From Bdellovibrionales bacterium (GTDB lineage Bacteria; Bdellovibrionota; UBA1018; CAIMNF01): DNA of 64,000 nt. This document shows, piece after piece, positions 22,498-53,059 of this stretch. The notes beneath the pieces are model-generated. The model was not told the DNA's origin. It saw only the letters and a program-made list of their open reading frames with translations, and did no database searches. The position numbers and the translations under genes were made by a program. The stretch spans positions 62,245 to 126,244 of the forward strand of contig JBEIJY010000001.1 of NCBI GenBank assembly GCA_040380025.1. Direction: 5' to 3'. Position 1 is the first letter of the stretch; the number at the start of each line of letters is the position of its first letter.

Positions 22498-23721
22498 GTG
22501 TCATTCCGCGAATCCAAACCTCTTTTTGCGATCTTCTTCATTGTTTTCGTGGATATCCTCGCATTCACCCTGATTCTTCCGTATTTGCCGTTCTACGCCG
22601 AGCGTTTCGGCGCGACCCCGACCCAGGTGGGACTGATTGTCACGAGCTTCTCGCTTTGCCAGTTTTTGGCAGGACCGGTGCTCGGTCATCTTTCGGACCG
22701 AGTCGGACGAAAACCGATTCTGATCACAAGTCAGATCGGGACTTGCGTGGGCTTTGTGATCCTCGCGCTTTCGAACAACCTTTGGATGGTGTACCTCTCG
22801 CGAATCCTGGACGGAATCACCGCCGGAAACCTCACGGTCGCGCAGGCCGCGATCTCGGACATCACCAAACCCGCCGATCGGGCGCGGGCGTTCTCGTGGA
22901 TCGGTGTCGCCTTCGGGACGGGTTTTTTCATCGGTCCCGCGATCTCAGGACTCCTCTCGCACTTCGGGCCAGAGGCTCCGGCATGGGGAGCGGCATTCAT
23001 CTCGCTTTGCTCGATCTTCTCGACCGCCGTTTTGTTCCGGGATTCGGGCCCGATGCTCGAGACCAAAAAACCGTTCCGGGTATCGCGATCCGACCTTCTT
23101 CGCGCCCTTGATCTGCGGCCCTTGGCGCATTATCTACGCCATCCGGGGCTGAAGCCGATCTTGCGCCAGTTCTTTTTCTTCAACGTGTCGTTTTCGGCGC
23201 ACATTTCGTGCTTCGCCCTTTTTGCCGAGCGCGTGCTGACCTGGAATGGAAAGCCCTTCGGGCCCACGGAGGTCAGTTACCTCTACGCGTATCTCGGGTT
23301 CCTCGGAATCGCCGTGCGCAGCTGGCTCATCGGTCTTTTGATTCGCAGATTCGGCGAGCGCGGCACCTCCAAAATCGGCTTCCTCGCCCAAGGCCTAGGA
23401 TTCGGCGCCTACGCCTTCGTGACCGATATTCCCGGGGCTCTGATTGCCTCGACGCTCTCGAGCATCGGTTCGGGACTGATCCGGCCCTCGCTGAGCGCGC
23501 GAATGTCGCATGAGGTGAGCCCGAAAGAGCAAGGCGCGATCTTCGGGGTGAGCCAGAGTCTGGCCTCGATCGCCTCGATCCTTGCGCCTGTGATTGCGGG
23601 ATTCATCCTGGGCTCGGTTTCGGTCCGTGCCTGGGCCGTGTTCTCGGGCGGAATGATGCTGATTGCGTTCGTATTCCGGGATCGGGAGGCATCTCCCGCC
23701 ACCCAAGAAGCGCGGCCCTGA
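22498..23721 (+). CDS. MFS transporter (TetA/DHA1-like)
   Basis: LGHLSDRVGRKP motif A, SRILDGITAGN, about 12 hydrophobic segments. Confidence 0.92.
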   Translation: MSFRESKPLFAIFFIVFVDILAFTLILPYLPFYAERFGATPTQVGLIVTSFSLCQFLAGPVLGHLSDRVGRKPILITSQIGTCVGFVILALSNNLWMVYLSRILDGITAGNLTVAQAAISDITKPADRARAFSWIGVAFGTGFFIGPAISGLLSHFGPEAPAWGAAFISLCSIFSTAVLFRDSGPMLETKKPFRVSRSDLLRALDLRPLAHYLRHPGLKPILRQFFFFNVSFSAHISCFALFAERVLTWNGKPFGPTEVSYLYAYLGFLGIAVRSWLIGLLIRRFGERGTSKIGFLAQGLGFGAYAFVTDIPGALIASTLSSIGSGLIRPSLSARMSHEVSPKEQGAIFGVSQSLASIASILAPVIAGFILGSVSVRAWAVFSGGMMLIAFVFRDREASPATQEARP

Positions 23722-26108: not shown

Positions 26109-26904
26109 CCAGACGATCCGGTTTTCGAGGATGGCGGTGCTCGTTCTGGAGTTTTTCGTCACGGCCTCGGTCGAACATCTCATGCTCGGACTCAGCCGGA
26201 GCGGTCGCGAACAGCTCCCGCGCAAAAAAGCGCTCCGAATCGGCCGCTACTCGAAGCGCGCTCTTGCCATTCTCGGAGTTCGCGTCGACTACGACCGGAA
26301 CACCCGCCCCTTTCCGGGCGGAGGCATGATGGTCTGCAATCATGTTTCGTACCTCGATATTCTGGTGCTCTCTTCGCAGATTCCGGCGCTTTACATCACC
26401 TCAGTCGAGACCGGATCGGCCGGCTGGATCGGGGCCTTGTGCCGGCTTGCCGGATGCCTTTTTGTCGAACGACGAAAAGTGACCGCGCTCAAGAAAGAAG
26501 TCTCCGAGATCGACTCGGCTCTGAAAAACGGGGTGCCGGTGGTCTTGTTCCCCGAGGCGACTTCATCGGATGGCCGGGATGTGCTGCCCTTCCGATCTTC
26601 TCTTTATGAGTGCGCTCTGCAAGCCCGGGCGCCGATTCACTCCTTTTGCATTCACTACACTCCCGAAGACAACGGAGTTCCCTATTACGGCGAGATGACG
26701 ATCCTGCCGCATCTGTTCGCCATTTGCGACGGACGCTCGAGAACGGCGCATCTCGAATTCCTTGACACGATCGAGCCCTCCGATACCCTTGAACGGAAGG
26801 CGGCCGCGCGAACCACCCGCTTTCAGATCCGGCAGGCATATGTTTCGAGAATGGGAAGAGCTCCAGAAGATCAAGTCCGGCCTGAGTCCGCACTGCAGGC
26901 GTGA
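26086..26904 (+). CDS. PlsC/OlsA-like acyltransferase
   Basis: CNHVSYLD (NHxxxxD), FVER, FPEATSSDG; directly after the OlsB-like gene. Confidence 0.88.
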   Translation: MRNSIRFDQTIRFSRMAVLVLEFFVTASVEHLMLGLSRSGREQLPRKKALRIGRYSKRALAILGVRVDYDRNTRPFPGGGMMVCNHVSYLDILVLSSQIPALYITSVETGSAGWIGALCRLAGCLFVERRKVTALKKEVSEIDSALKNGVPVVLFPEATSSDGRDVLPFRSSLYECALQARAPIHSFCIHYTPEDNGVPYYGEMTILPHLFAICDGRSRTAHLEFLDTIEPSDTLERKAAARTTRFQIRQAYVSRMGRAPEDQVRPESALQA

Positions 26905-37686: not shown

Positions 37687-37812
37687 GAGTTGTATTTTAC
37701 AAAACCAGCGGCAACCGGTCAAATAATTCCCGGCAAAGCCGGGGAGGACGACTTCTCCCGGGCCACTTCTTCGCCCGTTTCAATTTGGCTAAGTCGAGCG
37801 AAGTGAGCGAAA

Positions 37813-38040
37813 GAGGCGTATGAATAATACGCCGGACTGAGCGAATCTGATGCGAGACGACCCCAAATTGGATTGGGTGAAGAAGTGGTTGGGGCGCTAG
37901 GATTCATCTCGGCCGTCCCGGCCTCGACCATGCGGACGGCAGTCGCTACCGCTCCCGCCGTGCAAAAATGCCTCCGCTCCTGGCGGAGCTTCCTTGGCAT
38001 TAACGCCCCAACCACTTCTCTCCTGTATCTCCCGGAATCC
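37813..38040. repeat. 228 bp direct repeat, copy 1 (contains tRNA-Gln 3' end in both orientations)
   Basis: Matches 39507..39734 with 5 substitutions counted by eye. Confidence 0.95.
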
Positions 38041-38203: not shown

Positions 38204-38230
38204 TGTTAAAAAATGGTGCATAGTGGAGAA

Positions 38231-39412
38231 ATGGCTCACACGAGACCCCGCCATCTGAAACCCGTTTTCGAGAAATCCCTTCGTTGGTCCCCTTCGGTGT
38301 CATTGCTGGGAATGAGGCAGGTGGGCAAAACCACCCTGATGAAGGAATTGGTGGATCATTACCAAACCTTCGATGACGACACCCTTGTGTTCAAGGCGAA
38401 TTCCGGGAATTGGTCGTTCGTGGATGCTCCCAAAGGAACTCTTGGTCTGGATGAGTGCCAAAAAGCTCCCTCTGTGTTCGATCGGGTGAAATTGAACATC
38501 GACCAAAGGAAGCGCCCCGGGCAATATGTGCTGAGCGGCTCCGTTCGCTTCCTCTCCAAAAAACAGATTCGCGAATCCCTCTCCGGAAGAACCGACATTC
38601 TCGAACTGTTTCCGATGGGCATTTCGGAATGCCATTCGGGGGAACCGAGCCGGTTCCTGCCCATTGCGCTGAAGCTCGAGGGGCAAGCATTGCTCAATAA
38701 GATCGAGAGCAACGCCCGATACTCGCGGAAACAAGTTGAAGACGGCTTCATTTCGGGCGGATTGCCCGGGATCTGCTTCTTGAGGGATGCCGCAGTCCGA
38801 AATGCGAAATTCAGGATCCAAATCGAGACGCTTTTGAGTCGAGACATCGAAATGATCGCCCCGACCGATGTCGGATATGCAAAATTGAAGGCTCTCGCCA
38901 CCGGGGTTTTGAAGGAGTGCGGATCTCCTGTCAATCATTCCCGCCTCGCGAAGAACTCGGGCCTTTCGGCCCCTACTGTACGGAGACTCCTCGGAGCACT
39001 CGAGGGTCTGTTTTTGATTCGAAGACACGGTCGCTGTTTTTTCGGGACCGATACGGGACTCACCCATTTTCTGGTCAAGGAGTGGGAACCGGACTCCAGG
39101 CCATTCCTGTTGAGCACTGTTTTCATGGAGTTGACCCGTCAGCTTTCTTACAGATATCCCAATCTTCACGAGTTCGATGAATTCCGGAGTCGAGGAGGCA
39201 TCGATGTTCCATTCTTGATACGAGTCCAAGGCCATGCTCCGCTCGCGATTGTTCCGGACATTACGGAAGGCGCCTCGAACAAGTCGCTGATTAGCCTCAC
39301 GTGGTTCAAGAAAAAATTCAAAGACGCGAAGACCATCGTTCTTCACCGGGGAAATCGGGCATATCAAGCCTCGAGCGGTCATCTCTGTTTGCCATACGAG
39401 ATGATCTACTAG
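38231..39412 (+). CDS. AAA_14 ATPase with DUF4143 domain (COG1373-like)
   Basis: GMRQVGKTT, LDECQK, LSGS, ESLSGR, GGLPG, winged-HTH-like segment, C-terminal nuclease-like fold with an atypical motif. Confidence 0.88.
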   Translation: MAHTRPRHLKPVFEKSLRWSPSVSLLGMRQVGKTTLMKELVDHYQTFDDDTLVFKANSGNWSFVDAPKGTLGLDECQKAPSVFDRVKLNIDQRKRPGQYVLSGSVRFLSKKQIRESLSGRTDILELFPMGISECHSGEPSRFLPIALKLEGQALLNKIESNARYSRKQVEDGFISGGLPGICFLRDAAVRNAKFRIQIETLLSRDIEMIAPTDVGYAKLKALATGVLKECGSPVNHSRLAKNSGLSAPTVRRLLGALEGLFLIRRHGRCFFGTDTGLTHFLVKEWEPDSRPFLLSTVFMELTRQLSYRYPNLHEFDEFRSRGGIDVPFLIRVQGHAPLAIVPDITEGASNKSLISLTWFKKKFKDAKTIVLHRGNRAYQASSGHLCLPYEMIY

Positions 39413-39506
39413 GTCGGGACCGAGATCTAGCGAGAAAGGGTTGCCGAATTCTTCAAGACTCTGCCCATTCTTCCGGATCGTATTCGGAATGACAACGGAT
39501 CCGAGG

Positions 39507-39734
39507 GAGGCGTATGAACAATACGCCGGACTGAGCGAATCTGATGCGAGACGACGCCAAATTGGATTGGGTGAAGAAGTGGTTGGGGCGCTAGGATTCA
39601 TCTCGGCCGTCCCGGCCCCGACCCTGCGGGCGGCAGTCGCTACCGCTCCCGCCGTGCAAAAATGCCTCCGCTCCTGGCGGAGCTTCCTTGGCATTAACGC
39701 CCCAACCACTTCTCTCCTGTATCTCCCGGAATCC
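39507..39734. repeat. 228 bp direct repeat, copy 2
   Basis: Matches 37813..38040. Confidence 0.95.
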
Positions 39735-39840: not shown

Positions 39841-39915
39841 TGGTTGGGGCGCTAGGATTCGAACCTAGGAATGGCGGAATCAAAATCCGCTAGCTTACCA
39901 CTTGCCGACGCCCCA
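39841..39915 (-). tRNA. tRNA-Gln (TTG)
   Basis: TGGGGCG acceptor stem, GCGGA-TTTTGAT-TCCGC anticodon arm, GGTTCGAATCC T-arm, encoded CCA. Confidence 0.97.
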
Positions 39916-50826: not shown

Positions 50827-50916
50827 GGAGAGATGGGTGAGTGGTCGAAACCACACCCTTGCTAAGGGTGCAGGGAGTAACATCCCTCGAGAGTTCGAAT
50901 CTCTCTCTCTCCGCCA
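50827..50916 (+). tRNA. tRNA-Ser (GCT)
   Basis: GGAGAGA acceptor, CACCC-TTGCTAA-GGGTG anticodon arm, long variable arm, GTTCGAATC, GCCA end. Confidence 0.97.
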
Positions 50917-50920
50917 TTTT

Positions 50921-50962
50921 AAAAAAAGCCGGTGAGCCCGCAAGGGTTCAACGGCTTTTTTT
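50921..50962 (+). terminator. Intrinsic terminator after tRNA-Ser
   Basis: A7-GCCGGTGAGCCC-GCAA-GGGTTCAACGGC-T-tract. Confidence 0.8.
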
Positions 50963-50972
50963 ATTTTGCACA

Positions 50973-51123
50973 GCGGGGAGAGAGAGATTCGAAGCGAGCA
51001 GACCGGCCTGCGGTGCAGGCTGAGCGAGCGTGATGCGAGCGAAAGGTCTGCGAGGTGGCCAGGCGGAGGAGCGGCCGGATGGCGCGACGAGCGCTTGGCC
51101 GAATCTCTCTCTCTCCGCCATTT
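50973..51123 (+). repeat. Inverted-repeat element derived from the tRNA-Ser 3' end
   Basis: Inverted copy at 50973..50993 and direct 24 bp copy at 51100..51123 of 50896..50919. Confidence 0.9.
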
Positions 51124-51161
51124 AAAAAAGGCTTCCGGGCATTTCCCCGGAGGCCTTTTTT
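51124..51161 (+). terminator. Bidirectional-looking terminator after the duplicated tRNA end
   Basis: A6-GGCTTCCGGG-catttc-CCCGGAGGCC-T6. Confidence 0.8.
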
Positions 51162-51181
51162 AGTTCGTATCGCGGGAACCA

Positions 51182-51916: not shown

Positions 51917-53059
51917 CTAATCCCCCGATTCCCCCCGGCGGGAGAGATCAAGCGTGGCCAGAAATTCATGTGCAGGAATGACACGGACCCCGCCCGGATA
52001 AAGCCTTGCTTTCGAAAGATGGAGTACTACCTGGATCTTTCGGGCATGGGGATGGAGCTTCTCGTAGTGTCGGAAGTTCTCGCTTGGATCCGGATCGCTC
52101 AGTTTCACCTCGATCAAATGAGTCACTGTTTTTCCGTCCATCACCGCAAAGTCGATTTCCTGCTTCTGCTTGTTTCGCAGGAATCGAAGCTGAAGATCAC
52201 ACCCCTTGGCCTCGTTGAGATTCAGAATCTCTTTGTACAGGGACAAACCCACACAGTTCTCGAATCGGGCCGCTTCGTTTTCGATCCGGGGGAGGTCAAA
52301 AAAATACAATTTCGGCATCTTCTTGAGCGATGTCGCGGTAGTGCCCAGAGGATGGATTCTGAAAAAAAGATATGAATTTTCGAGCATTTCGATCCAATTA
52401 CGGATGGTCTTGTCGCTTTTCGAAAGATCCTCGCAAAGGGACTGATAACTCAGTAATCCACCCACCTTTTCGGTGAGAAGCAAAAAAAGATTCTGAATAT
52501 CGCTCAGGTTCCGGATGTTCTCGAGTTCGGCAAGATCCTGTTTCAGAATCACATCCAGATGGGAACTCCGCCATCGTCGATAATCGGAGACACTGCCACT
52601 GAAGAACGGCTCGGGGAAGCCCCCCACAGTCAGGATCCTCTCGAGAATCTCGCTTGAGGAGAGCGAGGGAAGAAGCTTCATTCCTTCTTTCACATCGATC
52701 GGAAGAAGCGTGTGATGAAAAAAACGGCCGGCAAGCGAATCCCCCGCTCTCCGGAACGTGTTCATGCGGGCGCTCCCGGTCACGATCGTTTTTTCGGGTA
52801 AATGGCCGGTATCATACAACCCCTTCAGCCAGAGCTTCCAACGGTTGTGCTTGTGAAGCTCATCCAGCACCAAGGGAGTGTTCATTTCCCACCGCTGTTT
52901 GAGAATTGCGGTACGATCGTCCAGAAAATCGTAGTTATAGTAGGTGCAATCGGGGAACAGAGATCGGGCAAGAGTGGTCTTTCCCACTTGCCGTGGCCCG
53001 CTCAGCAGAACCAGCTTTTTTCCGAGGTCTTTTTTGAGGTCGGTGCCGAGACTTCTCAT
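51917..53059 (-). CDS. AAA_14 ATPase with DUF4143 domain (COG1373-like)
   Basis: SGPRQVGKTT, LDELHK, VTGS, DSLAGR, GGFPE, PKLYFFD, FENCV, EIDF...IEVK (PD-(D/E)xK). Confidence 0.93.
   Translation of the reverse strand: MRSLGTDLKKDLGKKLVLLSGPRQVGKTTLARSLFPDCTYYNYDFLDDRTAILKQRWEMNTPLVLDELHKHNRWKLWLKGLYDTGHLPEKTIVTGSARMNTFRRAGDSLAGRFFHHTLLPIDVKEGMKLLPSLSSSEILERILTVGGFPEPFFSGSVSDYRRWRSSHLDVILKQDLAELENIRNLSDIQNLFLLLTEKVGGLLSYQSLCEDLSKSDKTIRNWIEMLENSYLFFRIHPLGTTATSLKKMPKLYFFDLPRIENEAARFENCVGLSLYKEILNLNEAKGCDLQLRFLRNKQKQEIDFAVMDGKTVTHLIEVKLSDPDPSENFRHYEKLHPHARKIQVVLHLSKARLYPGGVRVIPAHEFLATLDLSRRGESGD

Follow-up and report, generated by a model that had tools for sequence, protein, structure and literature searches.

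The 3′ end of the tRNA-Ser(GCT) gene considered here is found twice more behind the gene, once inverted and once direct, on the two sides of a GC-rich core of ∼105 nt. The question that this locus raises is what kind of unit the arrangement represents, and how its arms come to match the tRNA gene next to it. The window, i.e., the whole stretch of DNA that was analysed, consists of 64,000 nt of a Bdellovibrionales bacterium (assembly GCA_040380025.1, contig JBEIJY010000001.1, positions 62,245–126,244; the genome is labelled G000). The order at the locus is tRNA-Ser(GCT), hairpin terminator, inverted 3′-end copy, core, direct copy and a second terminator, with the following features in window coordinates.

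50827..50916, + strand: tRNA-Ser(GCT), host gene of the unit (ARAGORN; Rfam tRNA, 55.8 bits)
50896..50919, + strand: X1, the tRNA tail from T-loop C56 to CCA plus TTT, putative template of both arms (direct repeat, pattern search)
50920..50963, no strand: spacer, a bidirectional terminator-like hairpin 1 with A-run, stem-loop and T-run (inverted repeats, terminator scan)
50973..50993, + strand: left arm, an inverted copy of tRNA positions 54–74, 21 nt with one mismatch (repeat and pattern search)
50983..51108, + strand: match of covariance model R1, covering the Y-shaped core and the inner ends of both arms (G000:C1:113227-113352; 125.2 bits, E 4e-26)
50998..51051, + strand: core domain A, a 7-bp covarying stem around a variable hairpin and a conserved GCGAGC-GTGAT-GCGAGC hairpin, then GAAAGG (fold, covariation)
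51057..51100, + strand: core domain B, a 9-bp stem GGCCAGGCG / CGCTTGGCC with a conserved G·U, around a variable hairpin (fold, pair counts)
51100..51123, + strand: X2, an exact 24-nt direct copy of the tail (C56 to CCA plus TTT), which closes the predicted fold with the left arm (repeat search, fold, pattern search)
51123..51162, no strand: terminator-like hairpin 2 (repeat search, terminator scan)

These features had been described in a first-pass annotation of the DNA, and ARAGORN, Rfam, the repeat search and shuffles located all of them where it had placed them. The repeat search returns a direct repeat of 30 nt with 97% identity (50896–50925 / 51100–51129) that is exact across CGAATCTCTCTCTCTCCGCCATTT, and an inverted pair (50964–50991 / 51100–51127). 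A longer imperfect palindrome of 79% (50894–50927 / 50960–50993) consists of hairpin 1, X1 and the inverted arm. Both terminator-like hairpins were recovered twice, by repeat search and by terminator scan. A 19-mer that starts at C56 of tRNA-Ser is present three times in the window, i.e., in the tRNA, in the inverted copy with one mismatch and in the direct copy, and not once in 100 dinucleotide-preserving shuffles of the window. The mismatch in the arm is an A to G change on the + strand, and thus reads as G·U (G·T) on the tRNA-sense strand, as had been noted; G·U pairs generally fall on that strand. The ortholog in a related genome, G013, displays the same arm with the same mismatch. X2 together with hairpin 2 is 92% identical to the tail and terminator of an element-free tRNA-Ser(GCT) locus in another relative, G001.

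A second host gene in the window, tRNA-Gln, is followed by two further units.

39841..39915, − strand: tRNA-Gln(TTG), second host gene in the window (ARAGORN, Rfam)
39502..39734, − strand: Gln unit 1, with arm (39695–39713), Gln-type core, direct copy (39574–39599) and the start of an "M" hairpin module
37808..38040, − strand: Gln unit 2, 97% identical to unit 1, with arm (38001–38019) and direct copy (37880–37905)
38213..39412, + strand: payload between the two Gln units, an AAA_14/DUF4143 ATPase gene

The layout is that of the Ser locus, with an inverted copy of 16 nt on one side of the core and, on the other, a direct copy of 26 nt that reaches 6 nt into the flank. A complete M hairpin follows unit 2 and extends to 37763. 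The Gln arm is predicted to pair through CCA into the flank, such that no free CCA would remain. The equal architecture at the two loci had been pointed out before, together with two related motifs, GCCGGATGGC and GCCGGGACGGC; both motifs are present, each in the last hairpin that precedes the direct copy. The direct copy had been said to begin at GAATC at both loci. This is accurate for Gln, and at Ser the copy starts one base earlier, at C56 (CGAATC). Comparison of copies across loci bears out that the arms are locus-specific and set by the local tRNA, and that the core is common.

The core is modelled as a three-way junction in the form of a Y, and its pairs covary strongly. In an alignment of 74 rows that was fitted to the model, which favours structure, 93.2% of alignment cells are paired, compared with 69.7% in shuffles and 28–38% when partners are slid; both-side changes are found in 30 of 31 pairs. 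A MAFFT alignment that was not fitted to the model shows compensatory changes at 13 of the 31 pairs, with one G·U kept in 10 of 11 sequences. G·U pairs outnumber A·C pairs by 90 to 32, and the predicted fold energy is −90 kcal/mol for the + strand and −74.7 for the minus strand. The junction nucleotides are invariant. On these alignments and models, a predicted single-strand fold of the tRNA-sense strand is shown to be maintained through compensatory change. In the predicted fold of the Ser copy, the final pair of the domain B stem involves C56 of the direct copy, and the arm pairs with the entire tail to C74, leaving CCA at the 3′ end.

Every tRNA locus was scanned, as the first-pass annotation had proposed, and the unit layout is found at 5 of the 40 tRNA genes of G000. 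An extra match to the tail of tRNA-Val, on contig C23, lies within a long stretch that has no element features and was taken as chance. Model R1 gives 76 matches, found in 27 of 116 genomes of the order and in 14 of 70 genera; four matches at contig ends were left out (G090:C153, G033:C105, G033:C6 and G091:C109). Position counts were taken over 74 examined copies. The units are found almost exclusively behind tRNA and tmRNA genes: 51 of the 74 copies follow a same-strand tRNA or tmRNA gene at a distance of up to 300 nt, four are second units at 301–700 nt and one is 2.8 kb away behind a payload. The host genes comprise 24 tRNA species plus tmRNA, with between 0 and 8 units per genome. The recurrence at other tRNA loci and the covarying structure shared by the cores were the two points on which the idea of a common mechanism had been staked, and both have been found. 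In Rfam scans of the units, no family reaches threshold. A 26-base core pattern has no match in viral contigs, and in the genome collection it is found in only five contigs, all from MAGs titled Bdellovibrio-like, Oligoflexia or Proteobacteria. The host group of the family is uncultured predatory-type bacteria. A literature search, in which supplements could hold more, brought up no description of such a tRNA T-loop hairpin or miniature-element family.

The arms follow simple rules. Among the 51 tRNA-linked copies, the direct copy is 17 nt or longer in 36, and the start is nearly always T-loop C56 (C56 or G57). In 43 of the 51 the core is adjoined by an inverted arm that is 8 nt or longer; most arms consist of T-loop and T-stem only and are 8–13 nt long. 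In the other 15 copies the direct copy is 14 nt or shorter, with cores still among the best conserved (137 bits for L015, 117 bits for L011). Direct copies track the local flank and do not have CCA where the adjacent tRNA gene has none encoded. Since they follow the local DNA, they are not copied from mature tRNA. The spacer differs between genera: in g51 the unit starts 7–10 nt past the tRNA and there is no terminator in between, while in g1 a terminator is usually ahead of the unit.

Close relatives differ by gain and loss of units, which also form tandem arrays and undergo decay. The tRNA-Ser(GCT) unit is present in G000 and G013 and absent from G001, G002, G016, G011 and G007. Tandem arrays are found in G013, in G090 and behind the tmRNA gene of G002, and truncated and internally deleted copies occur. 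Cargo between units includes an ATPase, a BrnT/CopG pair and ORF6N. A tree was built from the 42 of 74 copies that score at least 60 bits. Cores behind Ser-CGA, Ser-GCT, Trp and Arg-TCT (G089) and Lys (G090) are 85–95% identical, and the Ser-GCT and Arg-ACG cores of G013 are 94% identical; the Ser-GCT cores of G000 and G013 share 67% identity. Within-genome similarity of cores could also reflect gene conversion among existing units, without recent movement. Among the relatives compared, none displays a recent insertion for which the flanks of an empty site can be aligned, and the limits of the inserted segment are thus not fixed; the flanks of a candidate empty site in genus g51 are too diverged for alignment. 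The two available comparisons disagree over which tail copy is native, and positions informative for the template of the arm divide 37 to 25 between one tail copy and the other.

It seems reasonably likely that the Ser feature is a copy of a lineage-wide, small, non-coding repeat of the "tRNA-tail" type, similar to the rtT repeat of Escherichia coli, that is non-autonomous and mobile and takes its arms, by copying, from the neighbouring tRNA gene. Such a unit consists of a spacer, often the terminator of the tRNA, an inverted copy of T-loop and T-stem that sometimes continues into the acceptor strand and flank, the core of ∼105 nt and a direct copy from C56 to the 3′ end. The unit would represent selfish non-autonomous DNA, laid down by copying anchored at the T-loop, whether through copy-back, template switching or a folded single-strand recombination site. 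One copying event would write both arms from the target gene and leave the tRNA intact, and presumably no element-encoded protein takes part. By analogy with E. coli rtT, transcription from the tRNA promoter probably continues through the unit, and enzymes of tRNA processing would trim the product.

The closest known system is rtT (tyrT/tyrV of E. coli; RttR; Rfam RF00391), a close architectural analogue that has no significant sequence or model match to the present family. In both, the unit immediately follows a tRNA gene of the same strand and the order of parts is the same; in rtT these are a spacer, an inverted copy of T-arm and acceptor, a GC-rich core with a CGAGCG..GCGAG hairpin and a direct tail copy. 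The first-pass annotation had described rtT as direct repeats only. This was mistaken, as each rtT unit also has an inverted copy of 22 nt that is 86% complementary. The Rfam RtT consensus closes its fold by pairing of arm and direct copy, the same closing as in the present family, and rtT is therefore a closer analogue than had been thought. The rtT direct copy starts in the T-loop at A58 and ends in CCA, while copies of the present family start at C56 or G57. Tandem arrays are found in both, at a spacing of 178 nt in rtT. Of the RtT characteristics, the same-strand position behind a tRNA and a T-loop-starting tail copy closed by a 5′ arm are displayed by the present family. In contrast, all known rtT repeats are behind tRNA-Tyr of enterobacteria, and the present family is found behind 24 tRNA species and tmRNA. 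Model R1 scores at most 4.8 bits on E. coli rtT, which is not significant. With the RtT model, the Ser copy by itself scores 14.6 bits (gathering score 45) and the Trp, Gln-type and Cys copies give no match, and an Rfam scan of 12 kb shows no RtT match at E ≤ 1.

The likeness to rtT bears on the first alternative, that the unit is a non-coding RNA gene that serves the host. It would be co-transcribed with the tRNA, the stem of arm and tail would provide tRNA-like ends for RNase P and 3′ trimming, the product would be a stable RNA of ∼150 nt, and the spread would be by ordinary duplication. Strong covariation, the conserved G·U and the invariant junction nucleotides are consistent with this, as are the g51 units, which follow the tRNA with no terminator in between, and the constancy of arm and direct copy in G000 and G013 despite divergence of the terminators. 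The E. coli rtT unit, which has the same build, is annotated as a small RNA of 171 nt that ends at the CCA of the direct copy; a statement in PMC3318445, which cites Bosl and Kersten (1991), has this RNA as experimentally shown, and one statement in a 2024 preprint describes the rtT mode of action as still unknown. On the other side, the distribution is patchy (27 of 116 genomes, 0–8 copies), truncated and deleted copies are present, orthologous loci differ by presence and absence, and no partner protein gene recurs nearby. In g1 a terminator usually precedes the unit, with no promoter-like site. An intrinsic terminator is present between tRNA and unit at many loci, and the scan gave no promoter-like site, which argues against efficient read-through transcription. 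In four runs labelled as RNA, contigs reach the tRNA alone; one run, probably DNA, extends into the core. A host-serving RNA gene is rather unlikely as the explanation of the family.

Known transposing systems were compared with the mobile repeat that we favour, and no mobilising enzyme was found. There is no gene inside the units, and clustering of 184 downstream open frames gives no family beyond pairs. In MITEs and REP sequences the arms are identical in all copies and the elements are dispersed. The present units share with MITEs and REP/REPIN sequences that they are short, non-coding, hairpin-forming, multi-copy and non-autonomous, but each locus has arms of its own sequence and the copies keep to the tails of tRNA genes. 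Assignment to MITEs was rejected: there are no shared terminal inverted repeats, as the arms are those of the local tRNA, nor a short fixed target-site duplication, the duplication being at least 21 nt, anchored at C56 and variable at its far end. REP/REPIN with RAYT was also rejected, as the copies are not dispersed and PF01797 shows no association with the core (18 of 27 core-bearing genomes, 61 of 89 core-free genomes). The one weak Y1 gene of G000 (PF01797) has unrelated flanks and no core nearby. The core had been called REP-like, a term that is apt loosely, for a folded repeat, and fails for the RAYT-type gene link and for dispersal. Elements of the IS91 type insert next to GTTC, and in some subtypes the T-loop GTTC adjoins the core on the other strand. 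A rolling-circle element of this type was rejected, as the Y2 transposase domain PF04986 is not associated with the core (6 of 27 core-bearing and 17 of 89 core-free genomes) and none of G000, G001 and G002 has it. Neither a Cas12f/TnpB-type domain nor an IS110 DEDD domain was found in G000.

A folded single-strand site is a further point of comparison. The CTX phage attP hairpin, reportedly described by Val et al. in 2005, is a site of this kind. Topology is alike in the order of direct copy, payload, inverted copy, loop and direct copy. Integron attC sites, as outlined in PMC5027507, also display a conserved structure, variable stem sequence and a strand-specific fold. The present units differ in that there is no IntI-type gene, the loop is a complex three-way junction of ∼105 nt and the stem takes its sequence from the very gene that is targeted. 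The units display a fold and a strand bias of the attC/CTX type; of candidate recombinases, G001 has only two Xer-like ones, and hopping of the core between tRNA identities is hard to fit.

The second alternative is that the units are scars of tyrosine-integrase islands, the direct copy representing attR and arm plus core an attP arm after interior deletion. A T-loop sublocation class of tRNA-gene integration was reportedly defined by Williams in 2002. tmRNA is also targeted by the present units, there are cargo genes between them, and in G003 an island with an integrase fragment and AbiE is found at the same tRNA-Leu site. A direct repeat from T-loop to 3′ end is the geometry of displaced island fragments, and tRNA and tmRNA islands likewise target the 3′ part of the gene, leave the gene intact and have a displaced tail copy at the far end (Islander database, PMC4383910). 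Tandem accretion with cargo between copies also occurs in such islands, with the tandem ssrA islands of Dehalococcoides as an example (PMC3146451). In the present units a displaced tRNA 3′ fragment is present, and an integrase within the repeat-bounded segment is absent. The units are 130–300 bp long, unlike integrase islands they have an inverted tail copy and a covarying single-strand fold, and no integrase is found beside them: the four PF00589 genes of G000 are on C2, C27, C31 and C35, and G001 has only two Xer-like tyrosine recombinases (PF00589) and yet three units. Free compensatory pair changes would not be seen in an arm that is bound by protein as double-stranded DNA, and the G003 island lacks such a core at its right end. 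One core serves many tRNA identities; as an element with its own tRNA tail would break tRNAs of other identity, near-identical cores behind five different tRNAs argue against island scars, which we regard as improbable.

That the transcript acts on its cognate tRNA, as a CCA-ended mimic or decoy or as an antisense or primer-binding site for the 3′ end, was proposed in the first-pass annotation and is very improbable: the free CCA of the Ser copy and the built-in complementarity of the inverted arm to the tRNA 3′ end are set against direct copies of 14 nt or less behind well-kept cores, which make selection for a mimic unlikely, arms of mostly 8–13 nt of T-loop and T-stem, a Gln arm that pairs across CCA, copies without CCA where the gene has none, and the finding of no reverse transcriptase (RVT_1) in G000, a genome that is 98% complete.

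The non-autonomous tRNA-tail repeat may belong to something wider. As a tentative and somewhat doubtful proposal, the present units and E. coli rtT might form an unrecognised class of self-retargeting elements, in which a core with no protein is spread by T-loop-anchored copy-back or template switch, the arms are rewritten for each target, the tail is duplicated and the host gene survives. In this proposal the folded strand, either as DNA or as RNA, is the active intermediate, and the sole machinery would be host enzymes of replication, repair or tRNA processing.

The rtT repeat behind tyrT has been known for decades as an isolated oddity (Bosl and Kersten, 1991, as cited in PMC3318445). The family found here represents a large evolving population of the rtT-type architecture, with 24 tRNA species and tmRNA, many genera, arrays, and both fresh and decayed copies. 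A single-locus curiosity thereby becomes a comparative system with a well-supported fold. With it, one can address how a small element targets the universal T-loop without killing the gene, how inverted arms are templated from the target and whether the product is a functional RNA. In the genomes that carry these units, the tRNA tails are sites where small cargo accumulates, such as ATPases and toxin–antitoxin pairs.

The repeat unit behind tRNA-Ser(GCT) has the following parts (window positions).

50827-50916, tRNA-Ser(GCT), the upstream neighbour of all parts of the unit
50920-50963, bidirectional terminator-like hairpin, the first feature past the tRNA
50973-50993, inverted copy of tRNA positions 54-74, with one mismatch
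between inverted arm and direct copy, GC-rich core of ~105 nt
51100-51123, tail repeated in direct orientation, T-loop C56 through CCA and TTT, 24 nt, exact
51123-51162, second terminator-like hairpin, the last feature of the unit

The 19-mer that starts at C56 occurs three times in the window, as against no occurrence in 100 shuffles. On the tRNA-sense strand, the predicted fold is a long closing stem, formed by the arm and the direct copy, around a three-way junction, with a predicted energy of -90 kcal/mol (z = -5.9) versus -74.7 on the other strand. Open frames of 57-65 aa run through the unit (50966-51163 (+) and neighbouring frames), but they are taken as chance, given the covariation of the stems and length differences among copies that are not multiples of three.

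The first-pass annotation anticipated inverted and direct 3'-end pairs at further tRNA loci, and this is borne out in G000, the 2.35 Mb, 53-contig assembly that is the source of the window. With the last 30 nt of each gene plus 10 nt of flank as query, a scan of the 800 nt past each of 40 tRNA genes shows the pattern at five. Both the Gln-TTG and the Ser-GCT loci fall inside the window. At tRNA-Gln(TTG) (39841-39915, minus strand) the layout matches that of the Ser unit, and two 233-nt units with 97% identity flank a 1.46-kb cassette that carries an AAA_14/DUF4143 ATPase gene. The direct repeat at Leu-TAG extends ~130 nt into the flank, and Glu-TTC has a 21-nt direct copy and a decayed arm. 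Arg-ACG displays a 19-nt arm, a direct copy shortened to 7 nt, and a second, internally deleted core 2.8 kb further on.

A common covarying structure of the cores, likewise foreseen, is found in two alignments. RNAalifold on a MAFFT alignment of 11 cores gives 31 pairs, 13 with compensatory changes, and one G.U is retained in 10 of the 11 sequences. In a 74-row alignment, whose fit to the model favours that structure, pairing is seen in 93.2% of cells, versus 69.7% in column shuffles and 28-38% with slid partners, and 30 of the 31 pairs have changes on both sides. The same alignment has 90 G.U/U.G cells versus 32 A.C/C.A cells; the folding strand is therefore the tRNA-sense one, either as RNA or as single-stranded DNA. 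The core consists of two domains. In domain A, a covarying 7-bp stem encloses a variable hairpin and a conserved GCGAGC-N5-GCGAGC hairpin with GAAAGG; the stem of domain B has 9 bp and encloses a variable hairpin.

The alignment of 11 cores was used to build R1, a covariance model of the Ser-type core. R1 matches the Ser copy and two Arg copies in G000, whose Gln, Leu and Glu cores are assigned to other subtypes. Within the order there are 76 matches in 27 of 116 genomes (14 of 70 genera); 72 were retrieved, four at contig ends being left out, and a rescan of the loci gave 74. Fifty-one of these 74 copies follow a tRNA or tmRNA gene of the same strand at a distance of at most 300 nt, four at 301-700 nt as second units of arrays, and one at 2.8 kb. 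Four others have less than 150 nt of upstream sequence, and for 14 no gene was detected in the available 600-1500 nt; among the 14, one has an N-masked tRNA-Asn ~100 nt upstream, and another lies 3.6 kb downstream of a tRNA-Leu, from which an integrase fragment and AbiEi/AbiEii separate it. Host genes comprise 24 tRNA species and tmRNA, and homologues of the Ser core in relatives sit behind Ser-GCT, Asp, Arg-TCG, Cys (three times) and Ser-CGA. The Gln-type core is present in relatives behind tmRNA, tRNA-Gln and tRNA-Arg-TCT (6 of 41 genomes). Unit arrays immediately follow ssrA in three relatives. ARAGORN found no tmRNA gene in the 98%-complete G000 assembly, where the locus may have failed to assemble owing to such repeats.

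The arms are copied from the local tRNA gene. In 36 of the 51 tRNA-linked copies the core is followed by 17 nt or more of the local tail without a mismatch, and in 43 its other end is adjoined by an inverted copy of 8 nt or more. Direct copies almost always start at C56, exactly 9 nt ahead of the R1 end. Inverted copies always terminate in the T-loop complement (..TCGAA or ..TTGAA). Most are 8-13 nt long and span just the T-loop and a portion of the T-stem; others reach 18-25 nt. As a rule the direct repeat stops 0-5 nt beyond the tRNA, sometimes 8-46 nt or more into the flank, and it lacks CCA wherever the tRNA gene does. As the direct copies follow both the flank and the absence of CCA, their template is the local DNA rather than mature tRNA. 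Locus comparisons conflict as to which of the tail copies is native. At tRNA-Val-CAC of one relative (G089), 7 positions distinguish the distal tail copy from the gene, and the flanks past both copies are identical.

Units are gained and lost. Behind tRNA-Ser(GCT) there is one in G000, two in the relative G013 and none in G001, G002, G016, G011 and G007. The "empty" site of G001 (L081, G001:C14) is not clean: past the terminator there is a stretch resembling an arm and a decayed core of the Gln type, and a direct copy is missing. A perfect tandem repeat (127/127 nt) is present at tRNA-Lys of G090 and an array of ~2.5 units at the tmRNA of G002; the last unit of an array is often partial and breaks off inside the arm or 5-75 nt into the core. 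Cores behind Ser-CGA, Ser-GCT, Trp and Arg-TCT (G089) and Lys (G090) share 85-95% identity. The Ser-GCT and Arg-ACG cores of G013 are 94% identical, and the Ser-GCT cores of G000 and G013 67%. Either units move among tRNAs of differing identity and are re-armed each time, or gene conversion homogenises cores and leaves the arms local; both scenarios are consistent with a repeat family in flux. A mosaic unit behind the G013 tmRNA (L068/L106, G013:C6, ~26291-26496) has an R1-type left half and a Gln-type right half, and core subtypes therefore recombine.

Several other features are associated with the units, three of them in the window.

38213-39412 (+), AAA_14/DUF4143 ATPase gene, the cassette between the tRNA-Gln units
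51917-53059 (-), AAA_14/DUF4143 ATPase gene
37763-37879 (-), module M, also at G000 C5 ~22755-23138 and in loci L015, L016 and L064

G000 has about nine paralogues of the ATPase (383-449 aa), one of them 0.75 kb beyond the tRNA-Ser unit, and another such gene is downstream of a relative's tRNA-Cys unit; these genes may be mobile cargo at tRNA tails. Between the two tRNA-Arg-ACG cores (L011 849-3265, G000:C26:3000-7000) are a BrnT toxin/CopG-type antitoxin pair, an orphan gene (363 aa, no Pfam match) and an ORF6N-domain gene, and a second ORF6N-like frame lies past the second unit. Module M, a ~125-nt hairpin whose tip is conserved and whose stem is pyrimidine-rich/purine-rich, is placed directly after the CCA of a tail copy and ahead of the inverted arm; in G000 it is confined to the Leu and Gln arrays. 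L089 (G003:C266, 7113-9527 (-)) displays a 3.3-kb island with tRNA-Leu on one side and an older M-arm-core unit on the other. It contains a 198-aa integrase C-terminal fragment and an AbiEi/AbiEii pair, and its right end is a tail copy with an internal deletion.

Position, locally templated arms, a strand-specific fold and turnover characterize the family. We infer a non-autonomous element, with insertion or duplication that would be anchored in the T-loop and would duplicate the target's tail, once direct and once inverted. Often the inverted arm lies within a larger imperfect palindrome that mirrors tRNA tail and flank across the spacer hairpin (Ser, 34 nt, 79%; Arg, a hairpin of ~190 nt; Leu), a shape expected from fold-back (copy-back) synthesis at a hairpin. 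The topology agrees with that of a folded single-strand recombination site such as attC or the CTX site, but a search for a recombinase gave no candidate. Scars of a classical integrase are unlikely, because no integrase is present, one core type serves many tRNA identities, and stem sequences vary freely with pairing kept, which is not expected of a sequence-specific protein-binding arm.

The putative non-autonomous element has no genes inside its units, and downstream genes are unrelated from locus to locus. G000 (98% complete) has no RVT_1, TnpB-type or IS110 domains; none of its four tyrosine recombinases adjoins a unit, and its one weak Y1 gene has unrelated flanks. G001 carries three units and just two Xer-like recombinases. 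Neither IS91-type Y2 genes (6 of 27 genomes with the core vs 17 of 89 without) nor Y1 genes (18 of 27 vs 61 of 89) are associated with the core, and the core pattern has no match in a viral contig collection.

The architecture is identical, part by part, to that of E. coli rtT. The first-pass annotation described rtT as direct repeats only, which is not right. In the tyrT-tyrV region of K-12 the repeats are spaced 178 nt, and each tRNA-Tyr is followed by a spacer, GGGGAAGGATGAGAAGCTTCGA, a GC-rich core with a CGAGCG..GCGAG hairpin, and AATCCTTCCCCCACCACCA. GGGGAAGGATGAGAAGCTTCGA repeats the T-arm and part of the acceptor in inverted orientation (22 nt, 86% complementary), and AATCCTTCCCCCACCACCA is a direct copy of the tRNA-Tyr tail from T-loop A58 to CCA. 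In the Rfam RtT consensus, pairing of these two closes the fold and leaves the last 9 nt (CCACCACCA) unpaired. The annotated rttR RNA (171 nt) runs from just past tyrV to the CCA of the direct copy, and by analogy the present unit may be released as RNA. Terminators precede many units and no promoter-like site was found, which speaks against strong expression.

Membership of RF00391 fails on similarity. The RtT model has no match in the window at E<=1; on the Ser copy scanned alone it scores 14.6 bits end-to-end (gathering score 45), and on three other copies it has no match. R1 scores at most 4.8 bits on E. coli rtT. On these comparisons the family is classed as rtT-like in build and not as a member of RF00391. 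PMC3318445 and a 2024 preprint describe rtT as a single-locus small RNA whose mode of action is unknown. A literature search on hairpin or miniature elements at the tRNA T-loop turned up no comparable description.
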